In this document: positions 12,348 to 48,633 of the stretch, piece by piece | How positions within the stretch are numbered: position 1 is the first letter of the stretch | Layout of the letters: the number at the start of each line of letters is the position of its first letter | From: a virus | Lineage: Duplodnaviria; Heunggongvirae; Uroviricota; Caudoviricetes | Direction: 5' to 3' (one strand) | Length of the DNA: 49,389 nt | Virus record (IMG/VR): IMGVR_UViG_2851966386_000003 | Span: 1 to 49,389 of that record | Made by a program: the position numbers and the translations under genes | Notes under the pieces: model-generated | Seen by the model: only the letters and a program-made list of their open reading frames with translations | Told to the model about the DNA's origin: nothing | Database searches by the model: none

Positions 12348-12629
12348 ATGTTAGTAGATTATCTTTTGATTGGACTTAAGCGTCATGGAGAGATAAAACA
12401 AGTCAAGCATAAGGCTGGAGATATGCTTGAGTCGTCACTGGCTTTTTATCCTGCAAATAATTACAACCTTGAGCAGCCAAATTGCGTTTATGATGTTAAG
12501 GTAATTCACCACCGAGGGCATCGTTATGCTATTGCTATTGCATGCGATGTAAATGCTTCAGAAATTAATTCCTTGGTTGAATCCACAAAAATGAACCCCA
12601 TCCCCGATGGTGTAATCGGGGAAATCTGA
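12348..12629 (+). CDS. Hypothetical protein, AT-rich cargo gene
   Basis: ORF 12342..12629; ATG 12348 preceded by GGGAGTGG; composition visibly more AT-rich than flanking phage genes. Confidence 0.45.
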   Translation: MLVDYLLIGLKRHGEIKQVKHKAGDMLESSLAFYPANNYNLEQPNCVYDVKVIHHRGHRYAIAIACDVNASEINSLVESTKMNPIPDGVIGEI

Positions 12630-12806
12630 TGTTGGAATCAAAGGAGTTTGTCATAGATTGATGGAATGAATGTGGACGTACTTACATCATCTAGACCTGA
12701 TATAAGAGATGGTTTAGGCTGTGATAAACTCTAATGCGAACAAACGATCTAGTTACCCTGCGTTACATCACTATGGCCTGCCTGATCGAAAAAATAAGGA
12801 GGGGGT

Positions 12807-13295
12807 GTGTCAAATTTTCTTTCTTTTATTGGGGTGCTTGTATCAATAGCTAGCTGTTATTATGCATACAAAGCATTCACATCTGCTAAAGAAATATCCT
12901 TTCCGGAAAAAAAGCCTCGTGAAAATATGTGTGTTATTAGATTTTTCTCGAAAGAAGCTAAGGAATTTGAAGGTTTTATAAACAAAAATAAACATAAAAA
13001 AGTGTATTTGAATATTGAGTTTGAAGGAAGTGAATTTGAAATCAATGAGGATGGTGATTCCCGCTGGTTGGTTGTCTGGACTGATACCTTTCAGGAAGTC
13101 CCTAAAGGTGAAAAGCTTGACACTTCAAACTGTAACGGGTATCAATTGACTATCATTCCTCATGAGGATGGGTTTGGTAATTTTCACTGGTTTCGTGGAG
13201 CTTATCAACTATCGGGGCATTTCTATATTGATGGATATAGTGGGCCTTATCAGGGTCTAATGAGTGCTGTTATCTCTGCTGCCAAAACCATATAA
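12807..13295 (+). CDS. Membrane-anchored hypothetical protein, AT-rich cargo gene
   Basis: 162-aa ORF, GTG start 5 nt after AGGAGG; N-terminal TM helix (FLSFIGVLVSIASCYYAY). Confidence 0.5.
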   Translation: MSNFLSFIGVLVSIASCYYAYKAFTSAKEISFPEKKPRENMCVIRFFSKEAKEFEGFINKNKHKKVYLNIEFEGSEFEINEDGDSRWLVVWTDTFQEVPKGEKLDTSNCNGYQLTIIPHEDGFGNFHWFRGAYQLSGHFYIDGYSGPYQGLMSAVISAAKTI

Positions 13296-13380
13296 GCAGT
13301 TTTGATTTTTTTTCATCATTCATAATCAGTACGTCAGCCTGAACAACTAACATTTTTTATCCAGCGCCAAGTGAGGACAC

Positions 13381-13608
13381 ATGGCGCACAAAGTAAAAAA
13401 ACACTCGGATTATAGATTTGTATGCAATAACCCTTCTGATCGTGATGATTGTTCAGGTTGTTGTAGTGAATGCAGTATTTTCTGCGTGGGGCTTGGGCTT
13501 CTACGGCTATCTGATGAAGTCCTGACGATTTTCGCGGGATGCTCAATGCCTCATATCTGTGGTCTTGTTTACTGCGTTATCCAATCTGTTTTCCTGGCAA
13601 AAAAATAA
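13381..13608 (+). CDS. Small Cys-rich hydrophobic protein
   Basis: 75-aa ORF with GAGGA SD; followed by hairpin terminator. Confidence 0.3.
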   Translation: MAHKVKKHSDYRFVCNNPSDRDDCSGCCSECSIFCVGLGLLRLSDEVLTIFAGCSMPHICGLVYCVIQSVFLAKK

Positions 13609-13637
13609 AAGCCTTCTCTGCGGAGAGGGCTTTTTTA
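13607..13637 (+). terminator. Rho-independent terminator
   Basis: gccttctc tgcg gagagggc stem-loop followed by tttttt. Confidence 0.6.
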
Positions 13638-13696
13638 TAGTTGATTAAAATGAAAATCTACGCGGATCGGGGTTCTCACGGCGGTACATAATTGAC

Positions 13697-13834
13697 ATGT
13701 ATTTCTGCAGTGTGAAGTGCGCTAAAGACAAGCAGGTTGCGCGTTGTGGTAATGCGGTTCCTCCGCCTTTTGCTGAGGCGCTGGTGAGTGCTAATTTTCC
13801 GGAGATGTGCCTGAAAAAAGACATTGCAGCATGA
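13697..13834 (+). CDS. Small Cys-containing ORF (45 aa) between two terminators
   Basis: Manual translation MYFCSVKCAKDKQVARCGNAVPPPFAEALVSANFPEMCLKKDIAA; stop abuts terminator; no clear SD. Confidence 0.25.
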   Translation: MYFCSVKCAKDKQVARCGNAVPPPFAEALVSANFPEMCLKKDIAA

Positions 13835-13835
13835 T

Positions 13836-13862
13836 AAAACCCGCTTCGGCGGGTTTTTTATT
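13836..13862 (+). terminator. Rho-independent terminator
   Basis: aaacccgc ttcg gcgggttt followed by T-run. Confidence 0.65.
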
Positions 13863-13943
13863 ATGGAAAAACATCAATCTAAACATAAGCATGGTGTTGG
13901 CAAAAAGTGCTGCAGAGGGGTTGAACATTTCATGCAACCGGTA

Positions 13944-13963
13944 TACTGTTTATTTATACAGTA
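13944..13963. promoter_or_regulatory. LexA box (SOS operator) upstream of dinI homologue
   Basis: TACTGTTTATTTATACAGTA = CTGT-N8-ACAG palindrome, 20 bp upstream of dinI-like ATG. Confidence 0.65.
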
Positions 13964-13982
13964 TCTGTGTGAGGTGCTAACC

Positions 13983-14216
13983 ATGAAAGTTGAAGTCACA
14001 ATTGATAAACATAAAAAACTCCCTGATGGTGCCATACCTGCGCTTGAGCAAGAATTGTTGCGCCGCTTGTCCCAGTCTTATGATGACTGCAAATTAACCA
14101 TTCGATGCACAAGCAACGATGGCCTTAGCGTTTTGGGCGGCGCTGATGGCGATAAAAAGCGCGTTGAGCAAATTCTGCAAGAGACATGGGAAAGCGCAGA
14201 CGACTGGTTTTATTAG
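13983..14216 (+). CDS. dinI: DinI-family protein
   Basis: 77-aa product matches E. coli DinI along its length (MKVEVTIDK...LPDGAIPALEQELLRR...EQILQETWESADDWF); GAGGTG SD; real start is internal Met of ORF 13824..14216. Confidence 0.8.
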   Translation: MKVEVTIDKHKKLPDGAIPALEQELLRRLSQSYDDCKLTIRCTSNDGLSVLGGADGDKKRVEQILQETWESADDWFY

Positions 14217-15434: not shown

Positions 15435-15731
15435 ATGGCGAATCTTCGCAAAGCGGCCCGAGGCCGCGAATGCACAGTACGTATTCCTGGGTACTGCAAT
15501 GGCAATCCCGAAACCAGTGTGCTGGCGCATTACCGTCTGGCGGGAACGTGCGGCACAGGATGCAAGCCTGACGATACTCAGGGCGCTATTGCCTGCAGTG
15601 CTTGCCACGATCTCATTGATGGCAGAAAGAGAACCACCGATTACACCCGCGACGAACTGCGCCTGATGCATGCCGAAGGCGTGCTCAGAACTTTGGCTAT
15701 ATGGAAACAAGAGGGGTTACTGAAAGCATGA
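15435..15731 (+). CDS. YbcO-like Cys-rich putative nuclease
   Basis: Product resembles, from memory, DLP12 YbcO family (ANLRKAARGRECTVRIPGYCNGNPETSVLAH...ACSACHDLIDG); directly upstream of Q-like gene. Confidence 0.55.
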   Translation: MANLRKAARGRECTVRIPGYCNGNPETSVLAHYRLAGTCGTGCKPDDTQGAIACSACHDLIDGRKRTTDYTRDELRLMHAEGVLRTLAIWKQEGLLKA

Positions 15732-16543
15732 AACTCGAAGCATCCTTAAAACATTTCAGCCCTCAGGGTATGCACATCAGCGACGATGTGAGAAGCACAT
15801 CACCTGATCGCCTCAACGGTACGGATGTTATGGCTGGTATTGGGGTGACAAGCAGCAGGGCAAGGTTCGGACTGGCAGCGTTCTTTGGAAAGACTGGCAT
15901 CAGCAAGACTGATGAGCAGTTGGCCGTCCAGGCGCTAGCACGGTATGCGATTGAAACCGCACCGAAGAACGTACGCAAAACCGCGGGTAAAGAGCTGGGG
16001 CACTGCTGCCTGATTTTGGCGAAGTTTGCTTTTGCGGAGTATTCCCGTTCAGCTGAAACAACGGGAGCCTGCAGGGTATGTAATGGCACCGGACAGATTG
16101 AAACCACTACCACAGAACGCAAAGTTTCTAATCCGTGGGGCAAAGCACCATATTGGGCTAAAAAATCTCGTGCTGTCTGTCCTTCCGACTGGGATAAGTG
16201 GACTGAAGTCACAGCCGCCTTCAGCGCTAAGTGTGAAGCCTGTGACGGTAAGGGGAAAATAAATGCTCGCTGTCGCTGTGGTGGTTCTGGCCGGGTTCTG
16301 GACCGCAAAGCGACAAAAGAGCAGGGAGCACCAGTATATAAAATCTGTGAACGCTGTTCGGGGAATGGCTTTTCAACGATGCCGTCTACTGCTGCTTATA
16401 AAGCGATTCTGACGCTTATCCCAGACCTGCACATCAGAACATGGACACGCAACTGGAAACCTTTCTGCGATGCGCTGGTGGACCTGTGCTGGAAGGAAGA
16501 GGAGAGGGCAGATAAAGAGTTTCAACGAGCAACAGCTGATTGA
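15728..16543 (+). CDS. Putative late antiterminator Q, with four CxxCxGxG zinc-finger repeats
   Basis: Position upstream of pR'/tR'-like elements and lysis genes; repeats CRVCNGTGQ, CEACDGKGK, CRCGGSGR, CERCSGNGF; ATGA-coupled start. Confidence 0.55.
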   Translation: MKLEASLKHFSPQGMHISDDVRSTSPDRLNGTDVMAGIGVTSSRARFGLAAFFGKTGISKTDEQLAVQALARYAIETAPKNVRKTAGKELGHCCLILAKFAFAEYSRSAETTGACRVCNGTGQIETTTTERKVSNPWGKAPYWAKKSRAVCPSDWDKWTEVTAAFSAKCEACDGKGKINARCRCGGSGRVLDRKATKEQGAPVYKICERCSGNGFSTMPSTAAYKAILTLIPDLHIRTWTRNWKPFCDALVDLCWKEEERADKEFQRATAD

Positions 16544-16583: not shown

Positions 16584-16613
16584 TTGATTTTGTCCGAAGT
16601 TGTCGTGTATATT
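16584..16613 (+). promoter_or_regulatory. Candidate late promoter (pR'-like)
   Basis: TTGATT -N18- TATATT just downstream of Q-like gene and ~45 nt upstream of a terminator. Confidence 0.45.
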
Positions 16614-16654
16614 TTAAATCGTGGAATAAAACGCCTGAACGAAAACATTCATAT

Positions 16655-16688
16655 AAACCCTGCTACTGCAGGGTTTTGTGTTTTTGAA
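16655..16688 (+). terminator. Rho-independent terminator (tR'-like)
   Basis: aaaccctgc tact gcagggttt followed by tgtgttttt. Confidence 0.65.
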
Positions 16689-16795: not shown

Positions 16796-17422
16796 ATGGC
16801 GTTAAAAGATATTTTTGTGCGAACCGAACCTCACAGACGGCATTATGGTGTTGCATTGTTTATCGGGCTTATTTCTGGGGTGGTTTCAGCATTTGTTAAA
16901 TGGGGTGCAGAAGTACCATTACCACCGCGTAGTCCTGTCGATATGTTTACCAGTGCCTGTGGACCAGAGTCATTAATTCGAGCTGCCGGGCAGATTGATT
17001 GTTCCAGAAACTTCCTTAACCCTCCTTATATTTTTCTGCGTGATTGGTTAGGGCTGGCCGATCCAAATGCGGCTGTCTATACCTTTGCCGGACATGTGTT
17101 TAACTGGGTAGGTGTAACGCATATCATATTCTCCATCGTGTTTGCGGTTGGGTATTGTGTAGTTGCCGAGGTGTTTCCAAAAATCAAGCTGTGGCAGGGT
17201 TTACTTGCAGGTGCACTCGCACAACTGTTTGTCCATATGATTTCGTTTCCGCTTATGGGCCTAACCCCACCGTTGATTGAGCTTCCATGGTATGAAAACG
17301 TTTCTGAAATATTTGGTCACCTGGTGTGGTTCTGGTCAATTGAGATAATTCGCCGGGATCTGAGAAACAGAATTACGCACGAACCGGATGCTGAAGTTTC
17401 TCTGAATTCAGCATTCAGATAA
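16796..17422 (+). CDS. yagU: YagU-family inner membrane protein (DUF1440)
   Basis: 208-aa product near-identical over long stretches to E. coli YagU (from memory). Confidence 0.85.
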
Positions 17423-17440: not shown

Positions 17441-17468
17441 AAACCCGCATAAAATGCGGGTTTTTTAT
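17441..17468 (+). terminator. Rho-independent terminator after yagU
   Basis: aaacccgcat aaa atgcggg followed by ttttttat. Confidence 0.7.
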
Positions 17469-17548
17469 GCCTGTGATTAGTCGCTCTTCGATAGCAATGT
17501 ATGCAGAGTGTATTGACGCTAGCTATGTTTACAGCATAACGTATTGAT

Positions 17549-17657
17549 GTGGTGAATCCCCCTATGCGGAGGGGCGACCAGTCAGTTACAGAAACCTGTA
17601 AATGCAGCGCGGCCATGCCGACTGGGGCATGCTCACCGGGAGGCACCCGGCACCACA
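17549..17657 (+). repeat. Copy 1 of ~108-nt structured repeat element (candidate ncRNA or recombination site)
   Basis: gtggtgaatccccctatgcggaggggcgaccagtc...gactggggca...ccgggaggcacccggcaccaca; shares conserved 5' and 3' arms with copy at 20245..20351. Confidence 0.6.
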
Positions 17658-17816
17658 CTGCCACATAACATATTTAAGATTTATGGAAGGTTTACTTCTG
17701 CGGTTGCCCTTCTATGTTTATAGAACGTAACGGCAAAAGTGAATGCTTCCTGGTAAATCGGTAGCTCGGACTATTAGGAGTGGCTTCGTTTCGTTACTAC
17801 CTAGAATGCCTACTTT

Positions 17817-17844
17817 CTGCCCGCCTTCAGGCGGGCTTTTTTAC
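17817..17844 (+). terminator. Rho-independent terminator
   Basis: gcccgcc ttca ggcgggc followed by tttttt. Confidence 0.7.
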
Positions 17845-18020
17845 GCCATCAATAGGGCGCTTCAAGAGAAAAGGTAAATATCAGTTGAAGGCTGCGCTTT
17901 GCGTGGCCTTTCTTATTTCAGGCTCACAGAAATCATCATCGATACAGCGCGTTGTTAAATCAGCCCGATGGGCCTGACCCCTTTATTCACACAGCACCCC
18001 GTTAACCCGGAGGTGAACCT

Positions 18021-18332
18021 ATGGCAAAGCATATGCAAGACAAAGAGAGCATGGCCGGAATCACCTGGCTGGCTCTGCTGATCATTGCTGGTTGGGGCGG
18101 CCTTGTCCGATTCCTGATGGATGTGAAGCAGGGCAAAGCAAAATGGAGCTGGATAAATGCCTTTGCGCAGATAGTGGTCTCTGCTTTCACTGGCGTCATT
18201 GGTGGGCTAATCAGCATTGAAAGTGGGCTGAGTATTTACATGATACTGGCCACTGCCGGTGTCAGTGGTGCTATGGGATCCGTAGCGCTTACGTATTTCT
18301 GGGAACGAATTACCGGAGTGAAAGCACAATGA
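18021..18332 (+). CDS. Holin
   Basis: 103-aa product with TM segments and charged C-terminus, possible dual start (MAKHM); GGAGGTG SD; directly upstream of endolysin with ATGA overlap. Confidence 0.7.
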   Translation: MAKHMQDKESMAGITWLALLIIAGWGGLVRFLMDVKQGKAKWSWINAFAQIVVSAFTGVIGGLISIESGLSIYMILATAGVSGAMGSVALTYFWERITGVKAQ

Positions 18333-18868
18333 CAGCAGACCAGATTATTGAAGGCATCCTGGGAAAAGAAGGTGGGTATGTCGATCACCCTTCTGACAAA
18401 GGCGGACCAACCCGCTGGGGCATCACGCAGACCACAGCTCGAGCACATGGTTACACCGGTGATATGAGAAACCTGCCCAGGGAAACAGCAAAGCAAATTC
18501 TGCTCAGCGATTACTGGACCGGCCCCCGATTCGATCAGGTGGCAAGTTTATCTACGTTACTGGCAGATGAGCTTTGCGACACTGGTGTGAACATGGGGCC
18601 AAATATTGCCAGTAAGTTTTTCCAGCGCTGGCTCACTGCCCTTAACATGCGCGGGAAGTTGTATCCCGATCTGATCCCGGATGGAGCCATTGGCCCCCGA
18701 ACCATCACCGCGCTTAAGGGATATCTTTCTGCCCGCGGGAAAGAGGGGGAACAGGTTCTGTTGCGTGCGCTGAACTGCAGCCAGGGTGCCAGATACCTCG
18801 AACTGGCGGAGGGCCGCGAAGCCAACGAGGATTTTCTCTACGGCTGGGTTAAGGAGCGTGTCCTGTGA
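18329..18868 (+). CDS. Endolysin, GH108 N-acetylmuramidase with peptidoglycan-binding domain
   Basis: N-terminal GH108 signature (EGGYVDHPSDKGGPTRWGIT). Confidence 0.85.
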   Translation: MTADQIIEGILGKEGGYVDHPSDKGGPTRWGITQTTARAHGYTGDMRNLPRETAKQILLSDYWTGPRFDQVASLSTLLADELCDTGVNMGPNIASKFFQRWLTALNMRGKLYPDLIPDGAIGPRTITALKGYLSARGKEGEQVLLRALNCSQGARYLELAEGREANEDFLYGWVKERVL

Positions 18869-19212
18869 AGATGATCATTTTCGCTTTGCTCGTGCTGGTG
18901 GCTGTGCTCGTTCTGTTACTGCTGCGCAAATATACCCGGCTGGAGTTCGTTGCCCATGCCAGCCTGCTGCTGAAAACGTGGTCTGTAAAGCTGGGGGCTA
19001 TCGGTGCGCTGGTTGGCATGTGGGTGCAGTCGTTCCCGGATGCTGCGCTGCACGCCTGGGCGATGCTGCCGCCGGACATTAAAAACATTTTGCCTTCAAA
19101 CATCGTGGCACTGATTAGCCCTGCGCTGGTGGTGCTGGCGGTGCTTTCGCAATACGTACGCCAGCCAGCATTGAAAGCTAAGGCCGACAAACTGAAGGAG
19201 CCGCAGCAATGA
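18865..19212 (+). CDS. Lysis-associated membrane protein (possible antiholin/LysA-like)
   Basis: 115-aa product with two hydrophobic helices; lies between endolysin and spanins. Confidence 0.45.
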   Translation: MKMIIFALLVLVAVLVLLLLRKYTRLEFVAHASLLLKTWSVKLGAIGALVGMWVQSFPDAALHAWAMLPPDIKNILPSNIVALISPALVVLAVLSQYVRQPALKAKADKLKEPQQ

Positions 19213-19484
19213 GCTTAGAAATTATTGCTGGTCTGGTGGTCGTCATCCTGGGCGCTATCGCTGGCGCGTTCGGCATAGGTCATGCTCGCGGGACCAGTAA
19301 GGCGGAAGCCAAAGCCGAGCAGCAGCGTACCGAAGAGAACGCCACCGCTACCATCGCTGCGGCAGAACGTAAGGCGGAAGTTGTGAAAGGGGCCAGTGAT
19401 GTACAGGAAGACGTTAAGCGTATGGGCGATGACGATGTTGATCGCGAGCTGCGCGAAAAGTTTACCCGCCCCGGTAGTCGTTGA
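19209..19484 (+). CDS. i-spanin (Rz-like)
   Basis: N-terminal TM helix then charged, coiled-coil-like region; contains overlapping out-of-frame lipoprotein ORF. Confidence 0.55.
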   Translation: MSLEIIAGLVVVILGAIAGAFGIGHARGTSKAEAKAEQQRTEENATATIAAAERKAEVVKGASDVQEDVKRMGDDDVDRELREKFTRPGSR

Positions 19485-19620
19485 TATGGCCTGCGGCTGG
19501 GTGAGGGTCATCTACCTGACCGACCACGATATAGACGCGCTGGATATGCAGACCAAGCGTGACATCCTGGCGCACAACAAAGCAGTGCAGGCCAACTGTC
19601 CGAGCATTACCCTTAAATAA
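19396..19620 (+). CDS. o-spanin (Rz1-like lipoprotein)
   Basis: Out-of-frame ORF overlapping 3' end of i-spanin; lipobox LIASC after short signal peptide. Confidence 0.55.
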   Translation: MMYRKTLSVWAMTMLIASCAKSLPAPVVVDMACGWVRVIYLTDHDIDALDMQTKRDILAHNKAVQANCPSITLK

Positions 19621-19824
19621 GGGGAAATGCTCCAGTAAAACAGCGCGAATGCCAAACGTGCAGCGGTTATTAGCGGCGATGATGTGACAGGAACTCAAGG
19701 GCACGGGCGCAGAGCACTGCGAGAGTGTGGTTGTGTAATCAGGTCATGGATCTTGTGTATAGACGTTCTCTGCGACACCAGGGTGACTTAGGCCTTCTTA
19801 CTGGAAGGCGGTAGTTAGAAAGCA

Positions 19825-19853
19825 GGGGTAGTGCCGGTTGACTACCCCTTTTG
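19825..19853 (+). terminator. Rho-independent terminator after lysis cassette
   Basis: ggggtag tgccggttga ctacccc followed by ttttgtg. Confidence 0.65.
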
Positions 19854-19871
19854 TGCAGAATTGGGTAAAAG

Positions 19872-19991
19872 TTAATACCTTTTTTTAAAAGTATTTTTAT
19901 ATTTCTTCGTTTCTCGCAAGTATGAAACCAGTGAACCCACTGCAACTAAAAGAAGAACTACAGCTAACGCTATCATCAGTATGGTTGTCAT
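19872..19991 (-). CDS. Small hydrophobic protein (39 aa), below ORF-track cutoff; type I toxin-like architecture
   Basis: Manual minus-strand translation MTTILMIALAVVLLLVAVGSLVSYLRETKKYKNTFKKRY; AGGAGGG SD 9 nt upstream; one TM helix plus basic tail. Confidence 0.4.
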   Translation of the reverse strand: MTTILMIALAVVLLLVAVGSLVSYLRETKKYKNTFKKRY

Positions 19992-20244
19992 GTGAGTTAA
20001 CCCTCCTAGGGACCATGGATATTATGGTTCGCATGAGGGGTAGTGTGGGATTTAAGTGAGAAAATTCCTAACTGGAATTTTTTCTTAATTTGAAACCTGA
20101 TATGAAACTTTATTGTTGGTTTTGTAATGATTCAATATGAAATGATTAATTATTGTCTGCCAGGATATACAGTTTTCCGAAAGAGGTGTTTTTACTGGTT
20201 ACATCGGATTGACTATGCACTTATCGCATAGCTAATGTAGATGC

Positions 20245-20351
20245 GTGGTGAATCCCCCTGTGCGGTGGGGCGACCAGCCAGGTTTTCTCTTTGAGCACAC
20301 ACGCAGGTCTGTTGGCTGGGGCAGACTTACCGGGAGGCACCCGGCACCACA
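20245..20351 (+). repeat. Copy 2 of ~108-nt structured repeat element
   Basis: gtggtgaatccccctgtgcggtggggcgaccagcc...ggctggggca...ccgggaggcacccggcaccaca; possible hairpin terminator at 20371-20397. Confidence 0.6.
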
Positions 20352-20544
20352 ACATACTGCATAACCCCATAAAGGCCTTCCATTACGGTAGGCCTTTTCT
20401 CTTCTGGTTGTATCTAATACTGTGGGCAGGTCAGCTGGCTTATGCAGGACAGATTATTTTTTCTTATTGAATGCCGCTTCTGGTGTGCTTATATTCTACC
20501 TAAAAATGGGTAGGTGTGTTGTGATTAGAAAATGCTATGCAAGA

Positions 20545-20904
20545 ATGTCTGACCCAGCATCAAATGACAAGCTGACACTGGAAATGCTTGTAACTGACGG
20601 TGGGCGTAAGATTTTTATCTGGGATTTTGATAAAGGGGTGGCAATTTTCTCTGAGGGTATAACAGGTAAGCAGTCTAAATACATAGTGCAAGGTGAAAAG
20701 CATGCAGGGCATATCAATCTTATCAGAGATAATACGATTGAGCGCACTATTTATGGGGTTAAGGAGCTCACCTGTGGAAATGGTGATTCCGGTAAATCCT
20801 CTCCTGTGTTTTGCTCATTGTGCGAGGGGCAGATACTCATAATCGAATGCCAAAAGGCTTTTATAAGAAAACCATTAAGGCTTGATGAACTCACCTTTGA
20901 ATAG
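20545..20904 (+). CDS. Hypothetical protein, AT-rich moron (start uncertain)
   Basis: ORF 20422..20904; weak SD; AT-rich. Confidence 0.3.
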   Translation: MSDPASNDKLTLEMLVTDGGRKIFIWDFDKGVAIFSEGITGKQSKYIVQGEKHAGHINLIRDNTIERTIYGVKELTCGNGDSGKSSPVFCSLCEGQILIIECQKAFIRKPLRLDELTFE

Positions 20905-21500
20905 AACTACTTACGATACATTCCTCATATGTTCGAAGGATATAACATCTCTCAGGTATCCTGCTTCTGGATGCCGGGAATGTGTACCGCTGGTGGGCTG
21001 GATTCTTGGAGCCTTTGCCCAGCAGTTTCAGGTGATAAAAAACCCCGTGGAGTAAATCCGACAAATTGACGGGGCGCTGCAGAGGCAGCCAATGTCGGAG
21101 TTTAGTCAGATTTCGAGGTGTTTTTCTACTGGTTTGAGAAAAAATGGATGGTCTGACACTACAGGAATTGGCTCATCCCTGAGCTCACGGGTAGAACAGT
21201 AGACTTTGTCATGGCAGAGCAAAGTCATAAGTAAGTGTAGAATGTGTTTCTGATTTAACAAGCGTAGCGAGTGTATGCTTCATGGATTGTACGTCTGTAA
21301 CTTTCATAATATTTCTGCCATTTCAAAATTAAGATACTAGGTAAAACCTTAGGGAATTTAGAGGGTAAGAGAAGCTGTGAACAAAAAAATCTCCTCGCGA
21401 AGCAATGTTTTTCACTTTAACGAAATATATTGTTTGCAATGTGGGTTTTTTAGTTCATCATGTATGCTACATTGAGTTCTTATAAAATGAGCTGCTAATT

Positions 21501-21707
21501 ATGACTGAGTGCAAACTTCCACAACTTCCAGAGTATTATCGATATGGTACTGAACAAATTAACAAGTTGCCTGGGAGTGGGGATGTTTTTCCTCCTGCGG
21601 GTAGTATAATAAAGTCAGTAAGTTTAAATGAAGGTGTATTTGTTTGTGTTCCGGTGCAGCGTTATATACACGGGTTGAATATTTGGGTTGTAGTTGAATC
21701 TTCTTGA
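21501..21707 (+). CDS. Hypothetical small protein (weak)
   Basis: 68-aa ORF in AT-rich region; weak SD. Confidence 0.25.
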   Translation: MTECKLPQLPEYYRYGTEQINKLPGSGDVFPPAGSIIKSVSLNEGVFVCVPVQRYIHGLNIWVVVESS

Positions 21708-21829
21708 TAATGATTTTTGTTTGGTAAAAGTGATTTTTCGTTGGTTTGGTGGTTTCTATTTATTATAAATTCGCTGTTGGAATTTAAAATTAGCATCATT
21801 GCAATGCTTTCAAACACCGTAGAAGGATT

Positions 21830-22024
21830 ATGATGCTAGTGCAAAATAATATTTATAATAATTCAGAGTCATATGCTATTCTTTTGTTTAGTATGTGGCC
21901 TGTCCTTATTGTACTTCTTGTCGTGATATCTTGCGCCTTTTACGGTGTATTGATGCATAAAACTGCAATTTGTTGTTTTCTGTCAGCTATGTTCCTTGGT
22001 GTCGCAGGCTGGTTTTATGGATGA
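21830..22024 (+). CDS. Small membrane protein
   Basis: 64-aa ORF with two hydrophobic helices; AAGGA SD. Confidence 0.3.
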   Translation: MMLVQNNIYNNSESYAILLFSMWPVLIVLLVVISCAFYGVLMHKTAICCFLSAMFLGVAGWFYG

Positions 22025-22178
22025 TCACCATTAGCTCTAATATGAGTCACTTTTTAGTATAAAGTCAGGGTGTCATTACTTTACCTGGCTTGTAGCGTTG
22101 GTTCCCTAAAGTTTGACGATAAAAGGCCCTGTTAATACAGGGCCTTTCTGTATGTATTATTTATCAAAGAGGTAAGAC

Positions 22179-22424
22179 ATGTCAGAGATCACCGCATCTG
22201 AGCAAATCCGCCTGGATATTATCAAGAAAGTGAATTACGACACTGCAGCGGCGAAGTTAGCCATTGACTGGGTAGGCGACAGCTATCTGAAGTCTGAGCT
22301 ATTCGCTGACTCTTTCGATCGTGTTTTCACGGAAAGTGAGATTGTCTCGAAGACCCGTAAGGCAATCCAGGAAGCGACCGAAGCGCTGGCGCTGTTTGAT
22401 ACTGCCGCTGAGCAGGTCAGCTAA
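22179..22424 (+). CDS. Hypothetical protein
   Basis: 81-aa ORF with AAGAGG SD ~6 nt upstream. Confidence 0.45.
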   Translation: MSEITASEQIRLDIIKKVNYDTAAAKLAIDWVGDSYLKSELFADSFDRVFTESEIVSKTRKAIQEATEALALFDTAAEQVS

Positions 22425-22749
22425 GGCATTACAGCAGGCGTTCATAGAGTGCCTGTGATAATGACCATCAGACAAATCGTCTGAGCTGACAGTTCAATCA
22501 ATCACCAATTACCAGTTACACGGGGTAACTGACATCATTGTCTGTTTATCCCGGTGAATTTTGAAATACTTACTACTCTCATAACGTCTCTGCCTGCCAA
22601 CACCAGAACGGCAGAGGTCAGTTAGCCGTATAGATGAACCTCTCCCGGGTGGCTCCTGAGAGATTCTTTATACGCTAGCTGGTAGTAACTAAAGGCCGCA
22701 TATTTTTGCGGCCTTTTTCATCATTTGTAAAATGAAAGCCCTCAGGCGA

Positions 22750-22878
22750 TTAACGATGCTCAGGACCATGGAAGTGATCTCCACCATGTCCGCCTCCATG
22801 GGGACCAGGGGGAAGGATACATCCTGAAAGTGACAGCGCACCACAGATCACAAAAACAGCAAGCATAATTCTTTTCAT
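22750..22878 (-). CDS. Small lipoprotein with His/Gly-rich mature region (42 aa), below ORF-track cutoff
   Basis: Manual translation MKRIMLAVFVICGALSLSGCILPPGPHGGGHGGDHFHGPEHR; lipobox LSGC; weak SD. Confidence 0.4.
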   Translation of the reverse strand: MKRIMLAVFVICGALSLSGCILPPGPHGGGHGGDHFHGPEHR

Positions 22879-22982
22879 AATAACTACTGAACTAAAGAGC
22901 CTTAATTCCAAAACATAAAAGTGAATATTTTATGGAGAATCAGTAATTCCTTTTTCTCCCTCACGTTAAAGAGGAATAATCC

Positions 22983-23978
22983 ATGGCAAAACCGGACTGG
23001 GGCGAGCTTCAGCAACGGTTCCTGTCCAATCATGCCGCAACCGGCGTATCACCGAAGGATTGGTGTGAAGCGCAGGGACTGAATTACGCTACTGCCCGCC
23101 GATACATCAAGAAACCCACTGCGCAAAAACCTGCGCAGAAGAAATTGCGCACTGCGCAAAAGGAAAAGTGCGCAGAAGAGCTGGTGGATGATGATGGCCT
23201 CACCGATCAACAACGTTTATTTGTCGCGGAATACCTGAAGGACAACAACGCCACGCAGGCCGCCATTCGAGCCGGGTATAGCAAGAAGACTGCTGAACAA
23301 ATTGGCTATCAGCTGCTTCAGAAAACTTCAGTTGCGCAGGCTATTGCGCAGCAGCAGAAAGCATCCATTGTGCGCACGCTCGGCAGCGCTGATGAAGTGC
23401 TTGAGCAGATGTGGCGCCTGGCCACCTTCGATGCCAACCAGCTATCACAGTATCGCCGCGGGAGTTGTCGTTACTGCTGGGGCTTTGGTCATCAGTATCA
23501 ATGGCGTGACGCTGTTGAGTATGAAGAGAAGCGGCTCGAAGCGCTTGAGCGAAAACGTCGCGAGCCCGTCGATGTTGGCGGCTACGGTTACGACCACACC
23601 AGCGCACCTAACCCGGAATGCCCCCGCTGCAATGGCGATGGCATAGGACAGCCTTTCTTCGCCGATACGCGCAAGCTGGCGCCTGATGCTGCGCTTGCCT
23701 ATTCCGGCGTGAAGCTCGGAAAGAACGGTGTGGAGATAACCGCCATCAGCCGTGAGCGCATGTACGAGGCGGTGATGAAACGTCTCGGCCTGGCTGATAG
23801 TGAGTTCGCCCAGCGACTGCAGCAGATAGAAATTGAGCGCCGGCAGCTGGAGATCGACAAACTTCGCAAAGAACTGGCCACTGACCCGGAGGATGACGAA
23901 CCAACGCCAGTTGCAATCAATATCAACGTAGTCGATGCGCGAGTGAGGGAAGAGGATGGCGATAGCTCCGACGCTTAA
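22983..23978 (+). CDS. Terminase small subunit with Cys-rich C-terminal extension
   Basis: Terminase-small signature (LTDQQRLFVAEYLKDNNATQAAIRAGYS) followed by CxxC motifs; upstream of terminase large subunit. Confidence 0.75.
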   Translation: MAKPDWGELQQRFLSNHAATGVSPKDWCEAQGLNYATARRYIKKPTAQKPAQKKLRTAQKEKCAEELVDDDGLTDQQRLFVAEYLKDNNATQAAIRAGYSKKTAEQIGYQLLQKTSVAQAIAQQQKASIVRTLGSADEVLEQMWRLATFDANQLSQYRRGSCRYCWGFGHQYQWRDAVEYEEKRLEALERKRREPVDVGGYGYDHTSAPNPECPRCNGDGIGQPFFADTRKLAPDAALAYSGVKLGKNGVEITAISRERMYEAVMKRLGLADSEFAQRLQQIEIERRQLEIDKLRKELATDPEDDEPTPVAININVVDARVREEDGDSSDA

Positions 23979-25263
23979 CGTTCCCCAGGCTCGTTTTCTG
24001 GCTATGCAGCAGAAGTTCAAAGCCTATGTAGCTGGTTTTGGATCCGGTAAGACATGGGTTGGCTGCGGTGGAATATGCAAAGGGTTCTGGGAGTTCCCCA
24101 AAATAAACCAGGGCTACTTTGCCCCGACCTATCCTCAGATCCGCGATATTTTCTACCCCACGGTGGACGAAGTTGCTCACGACTGGGGACTGAAAGTCAA
24201 AATCGTCGAGAGCAACAAAGAGGTCCATTTCTATAGCGGCCGCCAGTACCGCGGCACGACAATTTGTCGGTCGATGGAAAAGCCAGACACGATAGTCGGC
24301 TTTAAAATCGGCAATGCGCTGGTGGATGAACTCGACGTTCTGAAAGCGGATAAGGCGCGTCAGGCGTGGCGAAAAATAATCGCGCGTATGCGTTATAAGG
24401 TTGATGGTCTGCGTAATGGCATTGACGTGACTACCACACCTGAAGGATTTAAGTTCGTCTATAACCAGTTTGTTAAGGCTGTGAGGGAAAAGCCTGAACT
24501 GAGGTCGATGTATGGTCTGGTTCAGGCTTCGACATTCGACAACGAAAAGAACCTACCGGATGACTATATTCCTTCGCTCCTGGCGAGTTACCCGCCGGAA
24601 TTGATCAAGGCATATCTGAACGGCCAGTTTACTAACCTGACCAGCGGCACCATTTATCATCAGTTCGACAGAGTGCTGAATAATTCCAGTGAGGAAGAGC
24701 AGCCAGGTGAAGCGCTGTATATCGGGATGGATTTCAACGTCGGGAAGATGGCCGGGATCGTCCATGTATTGCGGCTCGGCTTACCACACGCGGTAACAGA
24801 GATTATCAACGCTTACGATACGCCCGACATGATACGCATCATCAAGGAACGTTTCTGGCTGTATGCCGACGGTGACTACCGCAAGGTCCGCGAGATTTAT
24901 ATTTACCCGGATGCCTCTGGTGATTCCAGGAAGTCAAACAACGCCAGCAAAACAGATATTGAGCAGCTCCGGCAGGCCGGATTTAACGTCATCGTTGATG
25001 ATGCTAACCCGCCGGTAAAGGACCGCATTAACTCCATGAACGCCATGTTCTGCAATGGTAATGGCGATCGCCGGTACAAGGTGAATGTGGCCCGTTGCCC
25101 GGTCTATGCCGACTGCCTGGAACAACAGGTGTGGGATAAAAACGGCGAGCCGGATAAAAAGAGCGATAACGATCACCCCAACGATGGCGCCGGTTACTTC
25201 ATTGTGAAGCAATTCCCAATCGTTCGACCTGCATTCTCTATTTCACTGGACACGACATTCTGA
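23956..25263 (+). CDS. Terminase large subunit
   Basis: Walker A-like GFGSGKTW near N-terminus; position. Confidence 0.85.
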   Translation: MAIAPTLNVPQARFLAMQQKFKAYVAGFGSGKTWVGCGGICKGFWEFPKINQGYFAPTYPQIRDIFYPTVDEVAHDWGLKVKIVESNKEVHFYSGRQYRGTTICRSMEKPDTIVGFKIGNALVDELDVLKADKARQAWRKIIARMRYKVDGLRNGIDVTTTPEGFKFVYNQFVKAVREKPELRSMYGLVQASTFDNEKNLPDDYIPSLLASYPPELIKAYLNGQFTNLTSGTIYHQFDRVLNNSSEEEQPGEALYIGMDFNVGKMAGIVHVLRLGLPHAVTEIINAYDTPDMIRIIKERFWLYADGDYRKVREIYIYPDASGDSRKSNNASKTDIEQLRQAGFNVIVDDANPPVKDRINSMNAMFCNGNGDRRYKVNVARCPVYADCLEQQVWDKNGEPDKKSDNDHPNDGAGYFIVKQFPIVRPAFSISLDTTF

Positions 25264-34235: not shown

Positions 34236-37115
34236 ATGACAGAACAAACCTCCCGCCTGGCCATTGTGATTGATAGCTCCGGGGCAGAAAAGCAGGCTGA
34301 CAATCTCGCAACTGCACTGGTAAAAATGACGCAGGCAGGCGAACGTGCTGTTACCAGTGCAGGGAAAGTGACAAAAGCTACTGATGAAGAAAAACAGTCT
34401 CTTTCTGAACTCTTAGATCGAATTGACCCGGTAAACGCAGCTCTGAATAAACTGGATAAACAACAGCAAGATCTTGCGAAATTCAAATCAAAGGGGATGG
34501 TAGATATCGATACATTCGATCTTTATTCAAAGAAAATCGAGGAAACACGAAACAGGCTAACTGGATTTCGCGACGACCTTGGCAAAACCGGACAATCTGC
34601 CGCACAGACTGCCTTTGCCATGCGCATGATCCCAGCGCAGATGACTGACATTATTGTCGGCTTATCTACGGGGCAGTCGCCGTTTATGGTGCTTATGCAG
34701 CAGGGCGGGCAGTTGAAAGATATGTTCGGCGGTATTGGCCCCGCGATTAAAGGTGTTGGCGGGTATGTGCTGGGGTTGATTAATCCTGTCACTCTGGCTG
34801 CCGCGGCTGTCGGTGTTCTTGGGCTGGCCTATTACAAAGGCTCTCAGGAGCAAGGCGAGTTCTATAAGTCATTGACCCTTAACGGTAATCTGGTTGGTAA
34901 AACCACCGGGCAACTAGCAGATATGGCCGCTCGGGTTTCAGTAGTTGCCAACTCAACTACTGGCGTGACCGCAGCCACACTTAACCAGATAGTTTCATCC
35001 GGGAAAGTGGCTGCAGAGTCATTGGAACGAGTAACAACTGCCGTGGTTGAAATCAGTGAAGCCACAGGCATCGCCACTGAAAAGCTGGTGGGTGATTTCA
35101 ACGACATTGCTGCTGACCCGGTTGCGGCCATTACAAAACTTAACGACCAGTACCACTTTCTGACACTGGCAACCTACAACCAGATTAAAGCACTGCAGGA
35201 TGAAGGTAATCAGCAGGATGCTGCACGGGTGGCTACTGATGCTTACGCCAATGCCATGCAGCAGCGTGCGAACGATATTCATCAGAATTTGGGGATTCTT
35301 GAACGTGCTTGGGACTCGCTTGCTAAAACGGCTAAAGGAGCATGGGATGCCATGCTTGATATAGGTCGCGAGCAAACCGGCACCGAGCGGATCTCTCAAA
35401 TTCGTAAGGAATTAGATTGGATAGATAAGGCTGCAGGCGGGAAGCTATTTTTTGGTGGAAGAAAGGCTGAGCTCGAAGATGAGCTAAATAATCTGCAATC
35501 TCAAATCACAACAGAAGGCGTTTTAACTGAAATAATCAGTAGTCATGACAAAGCTGAACAGCAAAGAATTAAAACGCAGCAGGAAGCAGATCGCGTTAAC
35601 CAGCAATATCTGAGCAATGCGGATAAGCGCAATAAAGCCATTAAGCAGCAAAGCGAGTTCCTGAAGGCAGGCGCAATTACTGCAGAGCAATATTCAAAAA
35701 ATGTTTCTCGTATTAACGAGATGTACAAAGATCCGAAACCACCCAAGACGCCAAAGAGTAAAGCATATACCGAGGACGCAGCAACCCGGCTGCTTGATCA
35801 GATAAACCAGCAGACTGCTGCTATGCAGTCCCAGCTGGATGCCAGTGACAAGCTTAACAGCTCGACACAGGCGCGGATTAAGTTCGAACAGCAAATTGCT
35901 GACCTCAAGTCTAAAACGCAGCTCACCGCTGACCAGAAGTCGATCCTTTCCCGTTCAGATGAAATCCTCCAGGCATATAAGCAGCAGGAGGCACTGCAAA
36001 ATTCCGTAAAAACCCTGGACGATTACCGCAAGATGCAGGAACAGGTAAAGACGAAAGATAAGCGGACCAACGATCTGCTTAAAACCCGTCTTGAACTGCT
36101 GGAGAAGGCCAAAGCAACCGGGCAACTTAAACCCGGTGAATATGCAAAAACGCGGGCAGATATTTATCAAAACACCGATATGCAACTGCCCTCGACGGTT
36201 CGTAATGTTGTAGGAAACCTGACACCCACAGGAGGGCGACTCTCTGGAACTTTTGAGGGGATGCAGGGGCAAATCAACGAATATGATCAGGCTCAGCAAG
36301 AGCTCCAGCGCTGGCTGGCAGCTCAGGAGGAAGCTTATGCGAAGGCCGGTGAAATAACTGCCGAGGGTGAGGCCAGAATGACCTCTATTCGTCAACGTGC
36401 GGCGGATGCAAATCAGGTCATAGAGGCTCAGAAAAACACCATCATATCTGCGGCCACGCAGTCCTTGTTTGATAGCACCGCCGAAATCATGCGAACGGGG
36501 TTTGGTGAGCAATCGGCAATCTACAAGGTCGCTTTTGCTGCGAGCAAGGCATTCGCTATCGCGGACTCGATGGTGAAAATCCAGCAGGCTATAGCAAGCG
36601 GTGCAGTAAGCGCGCCTTATCCGGCCAACATCATCGCTATGGCCTCAATCGCTGCGCAGACTGCCAGTATCGTCTCAAATATCCAGGCTGTTTCAGGAGT
36701 TGGCTTCGCCTCCGGCGGTTACACCGGCCCCGGTGGTAAGTATCAGCCCGCGGGTATTGTTCACAAAGGTGAGTACGTCTTCGACCAGGCTTCAACGAAC
36801 CGGATCGGCGTGTCTCAGCTTGAGGCACTTCGAAATGGCCAACCGCTTGATGCAACTCTGGGGCGTACAGGGTTTGGTACTGGTGTTCAGAACGTTAACA
36901 GCGATAACCGTAGGCAAACAACTGTACACGCGCCGATTAATCAGGAGTTTCATCTCCAGGGTATTACTCCGGAGCAGTTGAGCGCTACACTCAATCAGAA
37001 TAATCGACTGCTTTCCAGGCAGTTAAAAGGTGAACTCACAAAGGAGGTTACCATGCCACAAGGGGCTTTTGGTAACGCTCTAAAAGGAAACTATACACGA
37101 CACGGTCCTAGGTAA
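34236..37115 (+). CDS. Tail tape measure protein
   Basis: 959-aa coiled-coil-rich product in canonical position after G/GT. Confidence 0.85.
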   Translation: MTEQTSRLAIVIDSSGAEKQADNLATALVKMTQAGERAVTSAGKVTKATDEEKQSLSELLDRIDPVNAALNKLDKQQQDLAKFKSKGMVDIDTFDLYSKKIEETRNRLTGFRDDLGKTGQSAAQTAFAMRMIPAQMTDIIVGLSTGQSPFMVLMQQGGQLKDMFGGIGPAIKGVGGYVLGLINPVTLAAAAVGVLGLAYYKGSQEQGEFYKSLTLNGNLVGKTTGQLADMAARVSVVANSTTGVTAATLNQIVSSGKVAAESLERVTTAVVEISEATGIATEKLVGDFNDIAADPVAAITKLNDQYHFLTLATYNQIKALQDEGNQQDAARVATDAYANAMQQRANDIHQNLGILERAWDSLAKTAKGAWDAMLDIGREQTGTERISQIRKELDWIDKAAGGKLFFGGRKAELEDELNNLQSQITTEGVLTEIISSHDKAEQQRIKTQQEADRVNQQYLSNADKRNKAIKQQSEFLKAGAITAEQYSKNVSRINEMYKDPKPPKTPKSKAYTEDAATRLLDQINQQTAAMQSQLDASDKLNSSTQARIKFEQQIADLKSKTQLTADQKSILSRSDEILQAYKQQEALQNSVKTLDDYRKMQEQVKTKDKRTNDLLKTRLELLEKAKATGQLKPGEYAKTRADIYQNTDMQLPSTVRNVVGNLTPTGGRLSGTFEGMQGQINEYDQAQQELQRWLAAQEEAYAKAGEITAEGEARMTSIRQRAADANQVIEAQKNTIISAATQSLFDSTAEIMRTGFGEQSAIYKVAFAASKAFAIADSMVKIQQAIASGAVSAPYPANIIAMASIAAQTASIVSNIQAVSGVGFASGGYTGPGGKYQPAGIVHKGEYVFDQASTNRIGVSQLEALRNGQPLDATLGRTGFGTGVQNVNSDNRRQTTVHAPINQEFHLQGITPEQLSATLNQNNRLLSRQLKGELTKEVTMPQGAFGNALKGNYTRHGPR

Positions 37116-37198
37116 GCTAAACTGCATTAGCTGAGACTTGATTAGGTAGGTAAGTCTAACAATCTGAGTAGGTGCAAGAAAACACAAGGATCTTATTA

Positions 37199-37534
37199 AT
37201 GGAAGCGTTGTTAACATTTACATTTAAAGACTTTATAGCTTTTATGATTCCTCTTTTTATTGGCGGACTTATCTTCAATAGGAGACGTAAACGTAAGGAG
37301 GTCCGAGTGAAGTTTTCATTTCTTTGGCTTGTTTTGATAGTCGGTGGAATTCTTGAAATATGCGATGATATCTACACAACTTATTCCTATAGGCATAATC
37401 ACTTATATAATAATGATACGCTTACAACCGTGTTTAACTATGATTTTGCAAAAATTGTTTTTTGTGGGGTTTTGATTTTTGTTTCTATTGCGCTTCTTCT
37501 TCAGGAGTTGCTTTTAAATAAGCAGTCACATTGA
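37199..37534 (+). CDS. AT-rich small membrane protein (moron)
   Basis: ATG 37199 eight nt after AAGGA; three hydrophobic helices; followed by ~310-bp AT-rich non-coding tract. Confidence 0.45.
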   Translation: MEALLTFTFKDFIAFMIPLFIGGLIFNRRRKRKEVRVKFSFLWLVLIVGGILEICDDIYTTYSYRHNHLYNNDTLTTVFNYDFAKIVFCGVLIFVSIALLLQELLLNKQSH

Positions 37535-37848
37535 CGAATATTGCCTGTCGGCACATTGCCCTTTTTTATTTTGATATGGGGCTGTGCCGAAACAATGTAA
37601 GCTCAAATTAAAGTCAATAAAATTAGTGTATTGATAATGCTGTGTTTTTGATTTCTTTTAGCTCTTGAGATGAGTTGATAAATATATCGCCTTGTGTGTT
37701 TGTGTCGGTTTAAAAAGATTTTTATCTTCGTTAATCTGAACCAAAAAAATCAGAGTTTTCTTCGATTCCATAGTGCTTTATTCTGAAATGAATACCCTCC
37801 TGAGGTTAATGGTGAAATTTTATTCGAGATACTTTACCGGGAGACTGC

Positions 37849-44075: not shown

Positions 44076-44077
44076 TT

Positions 44078-44836: not shown

Positions 44837-44875
44837 AAAATCCCCTGAGATAAAACACTCAGGGGATTTATTTCA
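44837..44875. terminator. Bidirectional terminator between convergent fibre operons
   Basis: tcccctgag ataaaaca ctcagggga flanked by A-run upstream and T-run downstream. Confidence 0.65.
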
Positions 44876-44880
44876 TGACA

Positions 44881-45201: not shown

Positions 45202-45210
45202 AATGATTCC

Positions 45211-48427: not shown

Positions 48428-48633
48428 AAAATACTACATAACATCATTGCTGTGTGCGTCTTCGCACACGCCTATCTTCTAAGAAGGCGCCCAAAGCTTC
48501 CAGATATTTCTGGTCTGAGTTGTTACATCATGGAGGAGGTGCCGATGTGATAGGTTAAGAGCGAAGACGGTCTGTAAGTACCTTCCGAAGTAGAGGAACA
48601 AGGATCATGAATTTGAGTCTATACCATCCCAAT

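Follow-up and report, generated by a model that had tools for sequence, protein, structure and literature searches.

Between the lysis genes and the terminase genes of a lambdoid Klebsiella prophage lies a stretch of AT-rich, apparently empty DNA, and the question arises whether it belongs to the late operon proper or is a region of acquired genes. The stretch was analyzed within the window, which is the whole DNA of 49,389 nucleotides studied here (IMG/VR record IMGVR_UViG_2851966386_000003, positions 1 to 49,389; Caudoviricetes). This window represents a lambdoid Klebsiella prophage that carries a lambda-type Q antiterminator, a cassette of holin, GH108 endolysin and spanin genes, and TerS and TerL; its nearest database records are Klebsiella pneumoniae prophages. 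We read the interval 19620-22983, between the o-spanin and TerS genes, as an accessory-gene region of mosaic make-up (a moron hotspot) within the late operon, made of small, independently exchangeable cassettes, and we give this reading a probability of about 0.7. The cassettes would be a divergent pair of sm39 (minus strand, encoding a small membrane peptide) and STnc100-B (plus strand, a small RNA (sRNA) gene); p119; the convergent minus-strand element RNAX; p68 and p64; DUF2560; and the minus-strand gene lipo53 (Table 1).

Composition and variability of the spanin-to-TerS interval

The G+C content (GC) of 19621-22982 is 42.0%, against 50.5% for the window, 55.0% for the lysis cassette and 53.1% for terS/terL. 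Among 921 sliding windows of the same length (mean 50.6%, standard deviation 3.4%) it is the lowest, and accepted protein genes cover only 1314 of its 3362 bp (39%). A sequence-only reading of this DNA had described about 3 kb of AT-rich sequence with long non-coding gaps and several short open reading frames (ORFs) of uncertain start. This observation is confirmed, with the qualification that the gaps hold RNA genes and terminators. One of the uncertain starts, GTG 20422 of a 160-residue ORF, is over-extended, as described below for p119. The region flagged in that reading, 20422-22424, begins 17 bp past the 189-nt STnc100-B gene, which was overlooked, and leaves out the minus-strand genes sm39 and lipo53 of the same variable interval. 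It is also not AT-rich up to its end, where the DUF2560 gene has 50.4% GC. The statement that no product is recognizable was too strong, as STnc100 (Rfam), DUF2560 (Pfam), NF033853 (NCBIfam) and three PHROG families are matched. None of the matched protein families in the interval carries a known function.

For the comparison across relatives, the best 80 IMG/VR loci by TerS similarity were picked blind to the content of the interval; 53 of them have a recognizable o-spanin gene, with a TerS identity of at least 94%. In these 53 relatives the distance from o-spanin to TerS ranges from 885 to 3896 bp (median 1934; 3362 in the window), and at least 17 gene arrangements of the interval are found. 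In individual phage records the interval measures 0.95-4.2 kb. The order of the genes is shuffled between relatives; in L002, for example, it is p68', DUF2560, p64', lipo53. DUF2560 is present in 47 of the 53 relatives, lipo53 in 36, p64 in 35, p68 in 26, RNAX in 17 and p119 in 8, and sm39 with STnc100-B in two, which is a gradient of residency from the near-core DUF2560 gene to the rare sm39/STnc100-B cassette. The relatives support the earlier proposal of a cargo-acquisition hotspot. The condition named for refuting it, conserved core sequence in relatives, applies in part: DUF2560, with its normal GC, behaves as a near-core resident of the interval rather than cargo, and the p64, lipo53 and p68 families recur as well. 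The proposal as a whole is partly supported.

Klebsiella phage ST13-OXA48phi12.4 shares the block 20434-22463 at 98% identity and has a packaging module (HNH, TerS, TerL, HK97-type) unrelated to that of the window. Break points of the mosaic are placed at about 19615/19645 and 20424-20433, the latter immediately past the STnc100-B terminator. The sm39/STnc100-B cassette occurs in about half of the 34 loci that carry p119. Where such loci lack the cassette and have a window-type lysis cassette, about 1 kb of different sequence is found instead, which in L001 carries a TonB-like ORF. Five loci have a truncated p119.

The moron concept comes from Hendrix and Juhala; an example is lambda bor, which lies between Rz and cos and encodes a lipoprotein on the minus strand. 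The interval lies in the same place as the lambda-type moron slot, from lysis cassette to terminase, and likewise has an atypical composition; lipo53 is a minus-strand lipoprotein gene in the slot where lambda has bor. As in morons, small units have their own promoter-like and terminator signals, and their presence varies among otherwise collinear relatives. In the Pfam, PHROG, NCBIfam and PADLOC searches, no protein of the interval showed homology to Bor or to the product of a characterized moron, and two of its units appear to be RNA genes. Of the properties expected of morons, the closeness of the neighbouring genes in relatives is seen directly, as the same o-spanin and TerS genes stand as little as 885 bp apart. 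The atypical composition is seen as well, with the exception of DUF2560. With respect to own promoters and terminators, the terminators are convincing, whereas the promoters are consensus-level or deduced from conservation, and none is seen for p68 and p64.

An opposing explanation is that the interval consists of ordinary late-operon accessory genes of lysis or packaging, transcribed from the late promoter only and AT-rich since they are small and weakly expressed. According to their orientation, p68, p64 and DUF2560 would fit this explanation, p68 and p64 being without convincing promoters of their own, and DUF2560 is found just upstream of the packaging genes in phages of two unrelated terminase types as well as in most of the 53 relatives. 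However, sm39, lipo53 and RNAX lie on the opposite strand with their own signals, four plus-strand terminators break up the interval, and the gene order differs between relatives. Moreover, the gaps of some relatives are only 885-958 bp, and L005 (0.95 kb) is without DUF2560, p119 and p64; these short gaps indicate that most of the content is not required. We regard this explanation as improbable.

Several results weigh against an accessory-gene region. A consensus scan gave 9 promoter-like sites versus 10.5 expected from shuffled sequence, and its calls are consensus-level. The scan gave no recognizable own promoter for p68 or p64, which may therefore be simply late genes. DUF2560, p64, lipo53 and p68, occurring in one half to nine tenths of the relatives, look more like a semi-conserved accessory set than recent cargo. 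No protein of the interval was given a function by Pfam, PHROG, NCBIfam or PADLOC; PADLOC models at E <= 1 gave zero matches for p119, p68, p64, DUF2560, lipo53 and sm39. Structure-based annotation, suggested in the sequence-only reading, gave a confident AlphaFold2 model for DUF2560 (a four-helix fold; predicted local distance difference test, pLDDT, 90.7) without a Foldseek match in the PDB at E <= 0.001, and a model of p119 (pLDDT 41.8) too poor for a structure search. Finally, the stems of RNAX mostly never vary, and the support from covariation is thin; with invariant stems, covariation cannot establish the structure of RNAX.

For the accessory-gene region, the following expression is conceivable. 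In the lysogen, we infer that the cassettes with their own sigma-70-type promoters (sm39, STnc100-B, p119, RNAX, and probably DUF2560 and lipo53) would be transcribed, and that four plus-strand terminators and bidirectional hairpins would insulate each cassette. The terminator hairpins in the interval fold at -12 to -20 kcal/mol. The presence of these terminators and of those around STnc100 copy A, together with a lambda-type Q, suggests from lambda biology that late transcription to terS needs Q antitermination. After induction, RNA polymerase modified by Q would then read through all terminators to terS and terL. If the cassettes have a phenotype, sm39, p64 and lipo53 are likely candidates for membrane-level exclusion or fitness effects, and STnc100-B and RNAX for post-transcriptional regulation.

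The STnc100 copies and the sm39 gene

STnc100-B matches the Rfam model over its full length (positions 1-206) with 81.5 bits against a gathering score of 47 (E = 5.9e-16). A second copy between Q and the holin gene, STnc100 copy A, also matches the full model, with 71.9 bits. All consensus helices of STnc100 are present in copy B, namely the UGGUG/CACCA closing helix, CCCCC/GGGGG, CCGGG/CCCGG and the terminator (-13.9 kcal/mol, z = -3.1), and the helix segments are invariant across an alignment of eight copies. Over the same 8 copies, the -35 (TTGAC/TTGAA) and -10 (TAAnnT) hexamers are fixed in position and the spacer varies, which is the pattern expected of a real promoter. Copies A and B form direct repeats on either side of the lysis cassette. 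Their core of about 110 nt is 76% identical, with shared stretches of 15 and 23 nt that are exact, and the copies differ in their central hairpin and promoter spacer. Copy B is 99-100% identical in about 17 of the 34 p119-carrying loci. The promoter-like site of copy A starts at 17513, and strong terminators stand behind the gene at 17819-17836 and 17887-17911. The tRNA-like look of 17500-17700 and 20220-20370 is explained by STnc100, and a tRNA scan found zero tRNAs.

Several STnc100 copies per genome are already known: enterohaemorrhagic Escherichia coli has 11 copies, which are transcribed in uninduced cells, one being confirmed by Northern blot (PMC5331693). For the STnc100 copies of Salmonella LT2, binding of RpoD was reported (PMC10794520). 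Whichever of the following readings of STnc100 holds, copy B is a genuine STnc100 gene and came in with a discrete cassette.

STnc100 may be not only an sRNA gene but the constitutive late-promoter leader of lambda-Q-type prophages (PR'-qut-tR'), akin to lambda 6S RNA or StxS, and the window would then hold two leaders. Copy B would be a second Q-loading site or late promoter, or a stranded relic PR' from another phage; in a split version, copy A would drive the lysis unit and copy B a cargo-plus-morphogenesis unit. The position and architecture of STnc100 agree with this idea. One copy is located between Q and holin in every relative examined, 265-331 nt past Q in phages without the DUF1440 insert, and a PR'-like order of TATTGAC, 17-18 nt and TAAnnT is followed by a terminated RNA of about 190 nt. 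The Q of the window is a lambda-Q homologue. The lambda Q binding element sits in the promoter spacer, and all unique combinations with the window-type Q (28 of 28) show a single spacer family. In addition, PasD, a relative of STnc100, is linked to a PF03589 Q in >98% of cases (bioRxiv 10.64898/2026.05.13.724894), and StxS, a PR' by-product turned sRNA, provides a precedent (PMC7547250).

Other results disagree with the leader idea. The 6S region of lambda (43800-45700) gives no STnc100 match even at E <= 10. Each of Q clusters 1, 2 and 3 is found with two or three types of spacer, so that mere physical linkage could account for the pairing. The invariant start of STnc100, GTGGTGAATCCCCC, shows no -10-like, sigma-dependent pause element that is conserved and has A at position 2. 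In Stx2 phages, STnc100 is downstream of stx2 and the known PR' is upstream (PMC12370729). In the window, a separate promoter-plus-terminator stands directly behind Q at 16584-16676: promoter-like TTGATT-18-TATATT is followed 40 nt on by the terminator AAACCCTGCTACTGCAGGGTTT plus a T-run, and this is a candidate for an alternative PR'/tR' or for the leader of the DUF1440 gene. With respect to a position right after Q and before the lysis genes, copy B is downstream of the whole lysis cassette, and copy A has this position only when the DUF1440 insert is left out of account. Copy B has a spacer, ATGCACTTATCGCATAGC, that does not resemble that of copy A and is never found in the first copy after any Q examined; with such a different spacer, the Q of the window would probably not use copy B. 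We consider the leader idea unlikely.

Like STnc100/PasD, sRNAs of E. coli and Salmonella prophages, copy B matches the full model and lies in the late region near Q and holin. It differs from published STnc100 in that two copies in one prophage flank the lysis cassette, copy B being downstream of the lysis genes, and in that copy B is paired with a divergent gene for a 39-residue membrane peptide, a combination that is rare among the TerS-matched relatives. A possible paradigm for STnc100 is StxS of Stx phages, a terminated PR' transcript that is an Hfq-dependent sRNA (PMC7547250). Both RNAs are short, terminated and constitutive, and both lie in a lambdoid prophage after Q and before the late genes.

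The partner gene, sm39, matches NF033853 with 40.8 bits (cutoff 33) over residues 3-38 of 39, and its product has one hydrophobic helix and a Lys-rich tail. A Shine-Dalgarno sequence, GGAGGG, is located 9 nt 5' of the ATG, a minus-strand promoter-like site is found upstream (TTGAAT (20135-20130)-17-TAAAGT (20112-20107)), and the terminator behind the spanin genes is also just 3' of sm39. The peptide is 95-100% conserved in about 17 loci, with STnc100-B adjoining in all of them. In L034 (2285-2773), an sm39-like gene of 74% identity stands directly 5' of the first STnc100, before the holin gene, and L034 additionally has the sm39/STnc100-B cassette after the lysis genes. The sm39-like gene beside the first STnc100 suggests that the cassette came from a Q-to-holin region.

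The arrangement raises the question of whether sm39 and STnc100-B might be a type I toxin-antitoxin-like pair, in which the sRNA would repress the toxin for prophage stabilization or abortive infection. The two promoters are back to back, about 75 bp apart, an arrangement that resembles tisB/istR, shoB/ohsC and zor/orz. The peptide is small and hydrophobic, its gene has a strong Shine-Dalgarno sequence and a 5' untranslated region of about 100 nt with a hairpin, and an STnc100 copy adjoins sm39 in every sm39 locus, L034 included. On the other hand, most STnc100 copies are without a neighbouring sm39, and NF033853 is annotated as 'small membrane protein' only. A duplex test of the sm39 mRNA against STnc100-B, though crude, gave no excess complementarity (z = +1.5). 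Such a pair is very improbable.

RNAX, a candidate small RNA gene

The 596-bp 'gap' 20905-21500 between p119 and p68 holds a block of about 240 bp (21036-21275) that is conserved at 75-99% across loci, and the flanking DNA differs. This block contains RNAX, which is a candidate gene for an sRNA antisense to the late operon. For the RNA of 193 nt, the folding energy is -56.8 kcal/mol, and the z-score is -4.0 for the minus strand and -2.5 for the plus strand. The terminator, CCCCGT...ACGGGG plus UUUUUUAU, ends at 21035-21042, and its loop differs between variants. In 24 representative sequences the -35 GCTTGT and the -10 CTA(A/C)ACT are invariant, the full TTGTTA is found in 21 of 24, and the spacer has two unrelated versions. 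The promoter-like site agrees with the consensus at 8 of 12 positions and was hence missed by the consensus scan. Of the other hairpins, the 5' one is GACUUUG...CAAAGUC, an internal one is swapped wholesale for three different hairpins in variants, and in GCUGC/GCAGC one base pair alternates between GU and CG (9:8).

The window has one copy of RNAX. The 5' hairpin of 24 nt occurs, as an exact match, in 115 IMG/VR contigs. In the 80 of these loci that were read, RNAX has a single orientation throughout, antisense to the late operon; it is located between o-spanin and DUF2560/TerS wherever flanking markers are present, and p119 accompanies it in only about a third. RNAX has no family match in Rfam, and nhmmer found no more-diverged copies over 2.6 Mb of collected sequence. 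Among species-representative genomes, one contig has the exact hairpin: L239 (JAJUGM010000135.1, 8.4 kb), from a metagenome-assembled genome labelled Bacteroidota, which is probably a mis-binned enterobacterial prophage fragment. In the lytic, T7-like Drulisvirus KP-Rio/2015 (L042; KX856662 / NC_047779), positions 1-97 agree to 85.6% with the 5' part of RNAX. Either the phage has truly acquired this sequence at the end of its genome, or host prophage DNA has entered the assembly by error.

A minus-strand ORF of 112-123 residues across RNAX (20891-21261) was rejected as a gene, because its frame is not kept in diverged loci and is broken in the window by a 1-nt deletion; insertions or deletions are also found in L009, L015, L018, L034 and L035. 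The ORF is annotated as a hypothetical protein in MK422450 (21482-21820, minus strand; L001 6456-6794), and this coding sequence is probably a mis-annotated RNA element.

Alternatively, the block may hold no RNA gene and act at the level of DNA, for example as an operator or a recombination site with the perfect inverted repeat GACTTTG-N10-CAAAGTC as its basis, or it may be a decayed minus-strand gene. Its position relative to the late operon is fixed, many loci do have the minus-strand ORF, and the near-invariance of the stems makes an RNA structure unprovable by covariation. However, the conservation fits a transcription unit: the -35 and -10 are kept with alternative spacers, the terminator stem is kept with an alternative loop, and a U-run follows. 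The wholesale replacement of one hairpin by others and the fold of the minus strand also speak for an RNA, and the broken ORF is compositionally odd. These results make the DNA-site or decayed-gene explanation doubtful, and we keep RNAX as a candidate sRNA gene.

Like lambda oop and P22 sar, RNAX would be a short, terminated RNA opposite a long phage operon, and it could pair perfectly with a read-through late mRNA. It has no sequence or Rfam relation to them, the terminator alone giving a chance match of 17.9 bits to sar, and it overlaps an intergenic stretch of the late transcript and no coding region. We propose tentatively, as a possibility rather than an expectation, that RNAX is a new family of prophage regulatory RNA and that, with the extra STnc100, it provides a checkpoint, built on RNA, between the modules for lysis and packaging. 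In the lysogen, RNAX would then pair or collide with leaky read-through transcripts, and perhaps it would act in trans on host mRNAs through a variable single-stranded segment.

Duplex tests of STnc100-A, STnc100-B and RNAX against neighbouring initiation regions were set aside, as RNAduplex on whole sequences returned uninformative full-length 'duplexes'. One outlier, the p119 initiation region against STnc100-B (z = -3.5), was not trusted.

The protein genes, the prophage setting and the meaning of the interval

The features are collected in Table 1. The start of p119 is, by alignment, 20545 or 20521 and not 20422. The phrog_27982 match (E = 2e-80) covers residues 42-160 of the 160-residue ORF, and both the PHROG profile and 38 homologue clusters begin at residue 42, the ATG at 20545, so that the start at 20422 is over-called. 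GTG 20521 is preceded by a Shine-Dalgarno sequence, AGGTG, and corresponds to a conserved 8-residue extension in some homologues. The homologue clusters are from Klebsiella only, and even at 55% identity the ORF is unbroken. Searches with Pfam, NCBIfam and PADLOC gave no match for p119. A profile search of 1.84 billion representatives returned just small Klebsiella-type proteins and weak repeat matches, in which residues 7-59 match repeats of giant immunoglobulin-like/Calx-beta proteins; this hints at a beta-rich N-terminal half and indicates no function. A hairpin at 20495-20514 (TCTACC...GGTAGG) overlaps the AGGTG of GTG 20521, and its 5' arm lies before the predicted start of the p119 gene's own transcript. 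Thus, speculatively, the Shine-Dalgarno sequence would be sequestered only in late read-through transcripts.

Table 1. Predicted genes and signals of the interval and the neighbouring genes in the window
Feature	Position	Strand	Match or sequence
Q antiterminator, lambda-type	15701-16543	+	PF03589; lambda Q in PDB 7UBM, E = 3e-43
DUF1440 membrane-protein gene	16796-17422	+	
STnc100 copy A	17518-17721	+	Rfam RF02076, 71.9 bits
LydA-type holin	18021-18332	+	
GH108 endolysin	18329-18868	+	
DUF7940/holin-like gene	18865-19212	+	
i-spanin	19209-19484	+	
o-spanin	19396-19620	+	
Intrinsic terminator after spanin genes	19826-19853	+	GGGGTAGTGCCGGTTGACTACCCC then TTTTGTG; -16.4 kcal/mol, z = -2.7
sm39, 39-residue small membrane peptide	19872-19991	-	MTTILMIALAVVLLLVAVGSLVSYLRETKKYKNTFKKRY; NCBIfam NF033853
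STnc100-B promoter-like site	20209-20238	+	TTGACT-18-TAATGT
STnc100-B sRNA gene	20217-20405	+	Rfam RF02076; terminator 20371-20397 included
Promoter-like site upstream of p119	20467-20495	+	TTGAAT-17-TATATT; consensus scan, 9/12, consensus-level only
p119, 119 residues	20545-20904	+	phrog_27982; alternative start GTG 20521
RNAX, candidate sRNA gene, ~190 nt	21036-21228	-	Antisense to late operon
RNAX promoter-like site	21234-21261	-	TTGTTA (21261-21256)-16-TACACT (21239-21234)
p68, 68 residues	21501-21707	+	phrog_7679, E = 1.7e-35
p64, 64 residues, two predicted transmembrane segments	21830-22024	+	phrog_36556, E = 8.3e-21
Intrinsic terminator after p64	22122-22146	+	AAAAGGCCCTG TTAA TACAGGGCCTTT; -20.1 kcal/mol, z = -5.4
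DUF2560 protein, 81 residues	22179-22424	+	PF10834, phrog_571
Bidirectional terminator between DUF2560 (+) and lipo53 (-)	22691-22716	.	AAAGGCCGCA TATTTT TGCGGCCTTT then TTCAT; -17.6 kcal/mol, z = -6.7
lipo53, small lipoprotein precursor	22750-22878	-	MKRIMLAVFVICGALSLSGC / ILPPGPHGGGHGGDHFHGPEHR; listed ORF reaches TTG 22911
TerS	22983-23978	+	
TerL	23956-25263	+	

Homologues of p68 (47-49% identity) are found directly behind the spanin genes in L002, L003, L005 and L006, and those of p64 (52-58% identity) at other places inside the interval. A Shine-Dalgarno sequence, GAAGGA, is present upstream of p64. The terminator behind p64 overlaps a promoter-like site (22132-22160) that could serve DUF2560. 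The DUF2560 protein matches PF10834 over residues 3-73 with 70.9 bits (cutoff 25) and is also found in E. coli prophages; nothing on DUF2560 was found in the literature. In the lipo53 product, an LSGC lipobox lies behind a signal-like N-terminus and leads to a 23-residue mature peptide rich in His, Gly and Pro. The gene has no family match above cutoff in Pfam, PHROG or NCBIfam, and is 94-98% conserved in the relatives that carry it.

Compared with lambda Q (207 residues), the Q of the window is longer, at 280 residues, and its alignment falls into two parts, 10-133 and 189-274. It contains a DnaJ-like CXXCXGXG zinc-finger segment twice, which looks like an internal insertion or duplication. 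The DUF1440 gene, inserted between Q and STnc100 copy A with 40-45% GC and its own terminator (17444-17470), is found only in relatives with a window-type Q and looks like another moron. Further low-GC islands (35-44% GC) at 12500-14000, which includes a DinI-like gene (13824-14216), 37000-38000 and 48500-49000 are probably more accessory insertions.

Overall, the interval is an ordinary mosaic cargo region, and the duplicated STnc100 and the candidate sRNA are the sole non-routine items. The two STnc100 copies around the lysis cassette, the divergent sm39/STnc100 cassette and RNAX appear to be undescribed.

Prophages of K. pneumoniae are abundant in clinical lineages, and their accessory regions tend to house functions of lysogenic conversion, exclusion and regulation. 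The gap from lysis genes to terminase is a highly recombinogenic slot that draws on a small set of recurrent cassettes, and RNA elements are encoded in its seemingly empty DNA, namely a duplicated STnc100 and a widely conserved, unannotated candidate sRNA, which some GenBank records list, probably in error, as a protein of 112 residues. If these RNAs are expressed, they would be additions to the short list of phage-borne riboregulators; if not, the interval would be a routine moron cluster.

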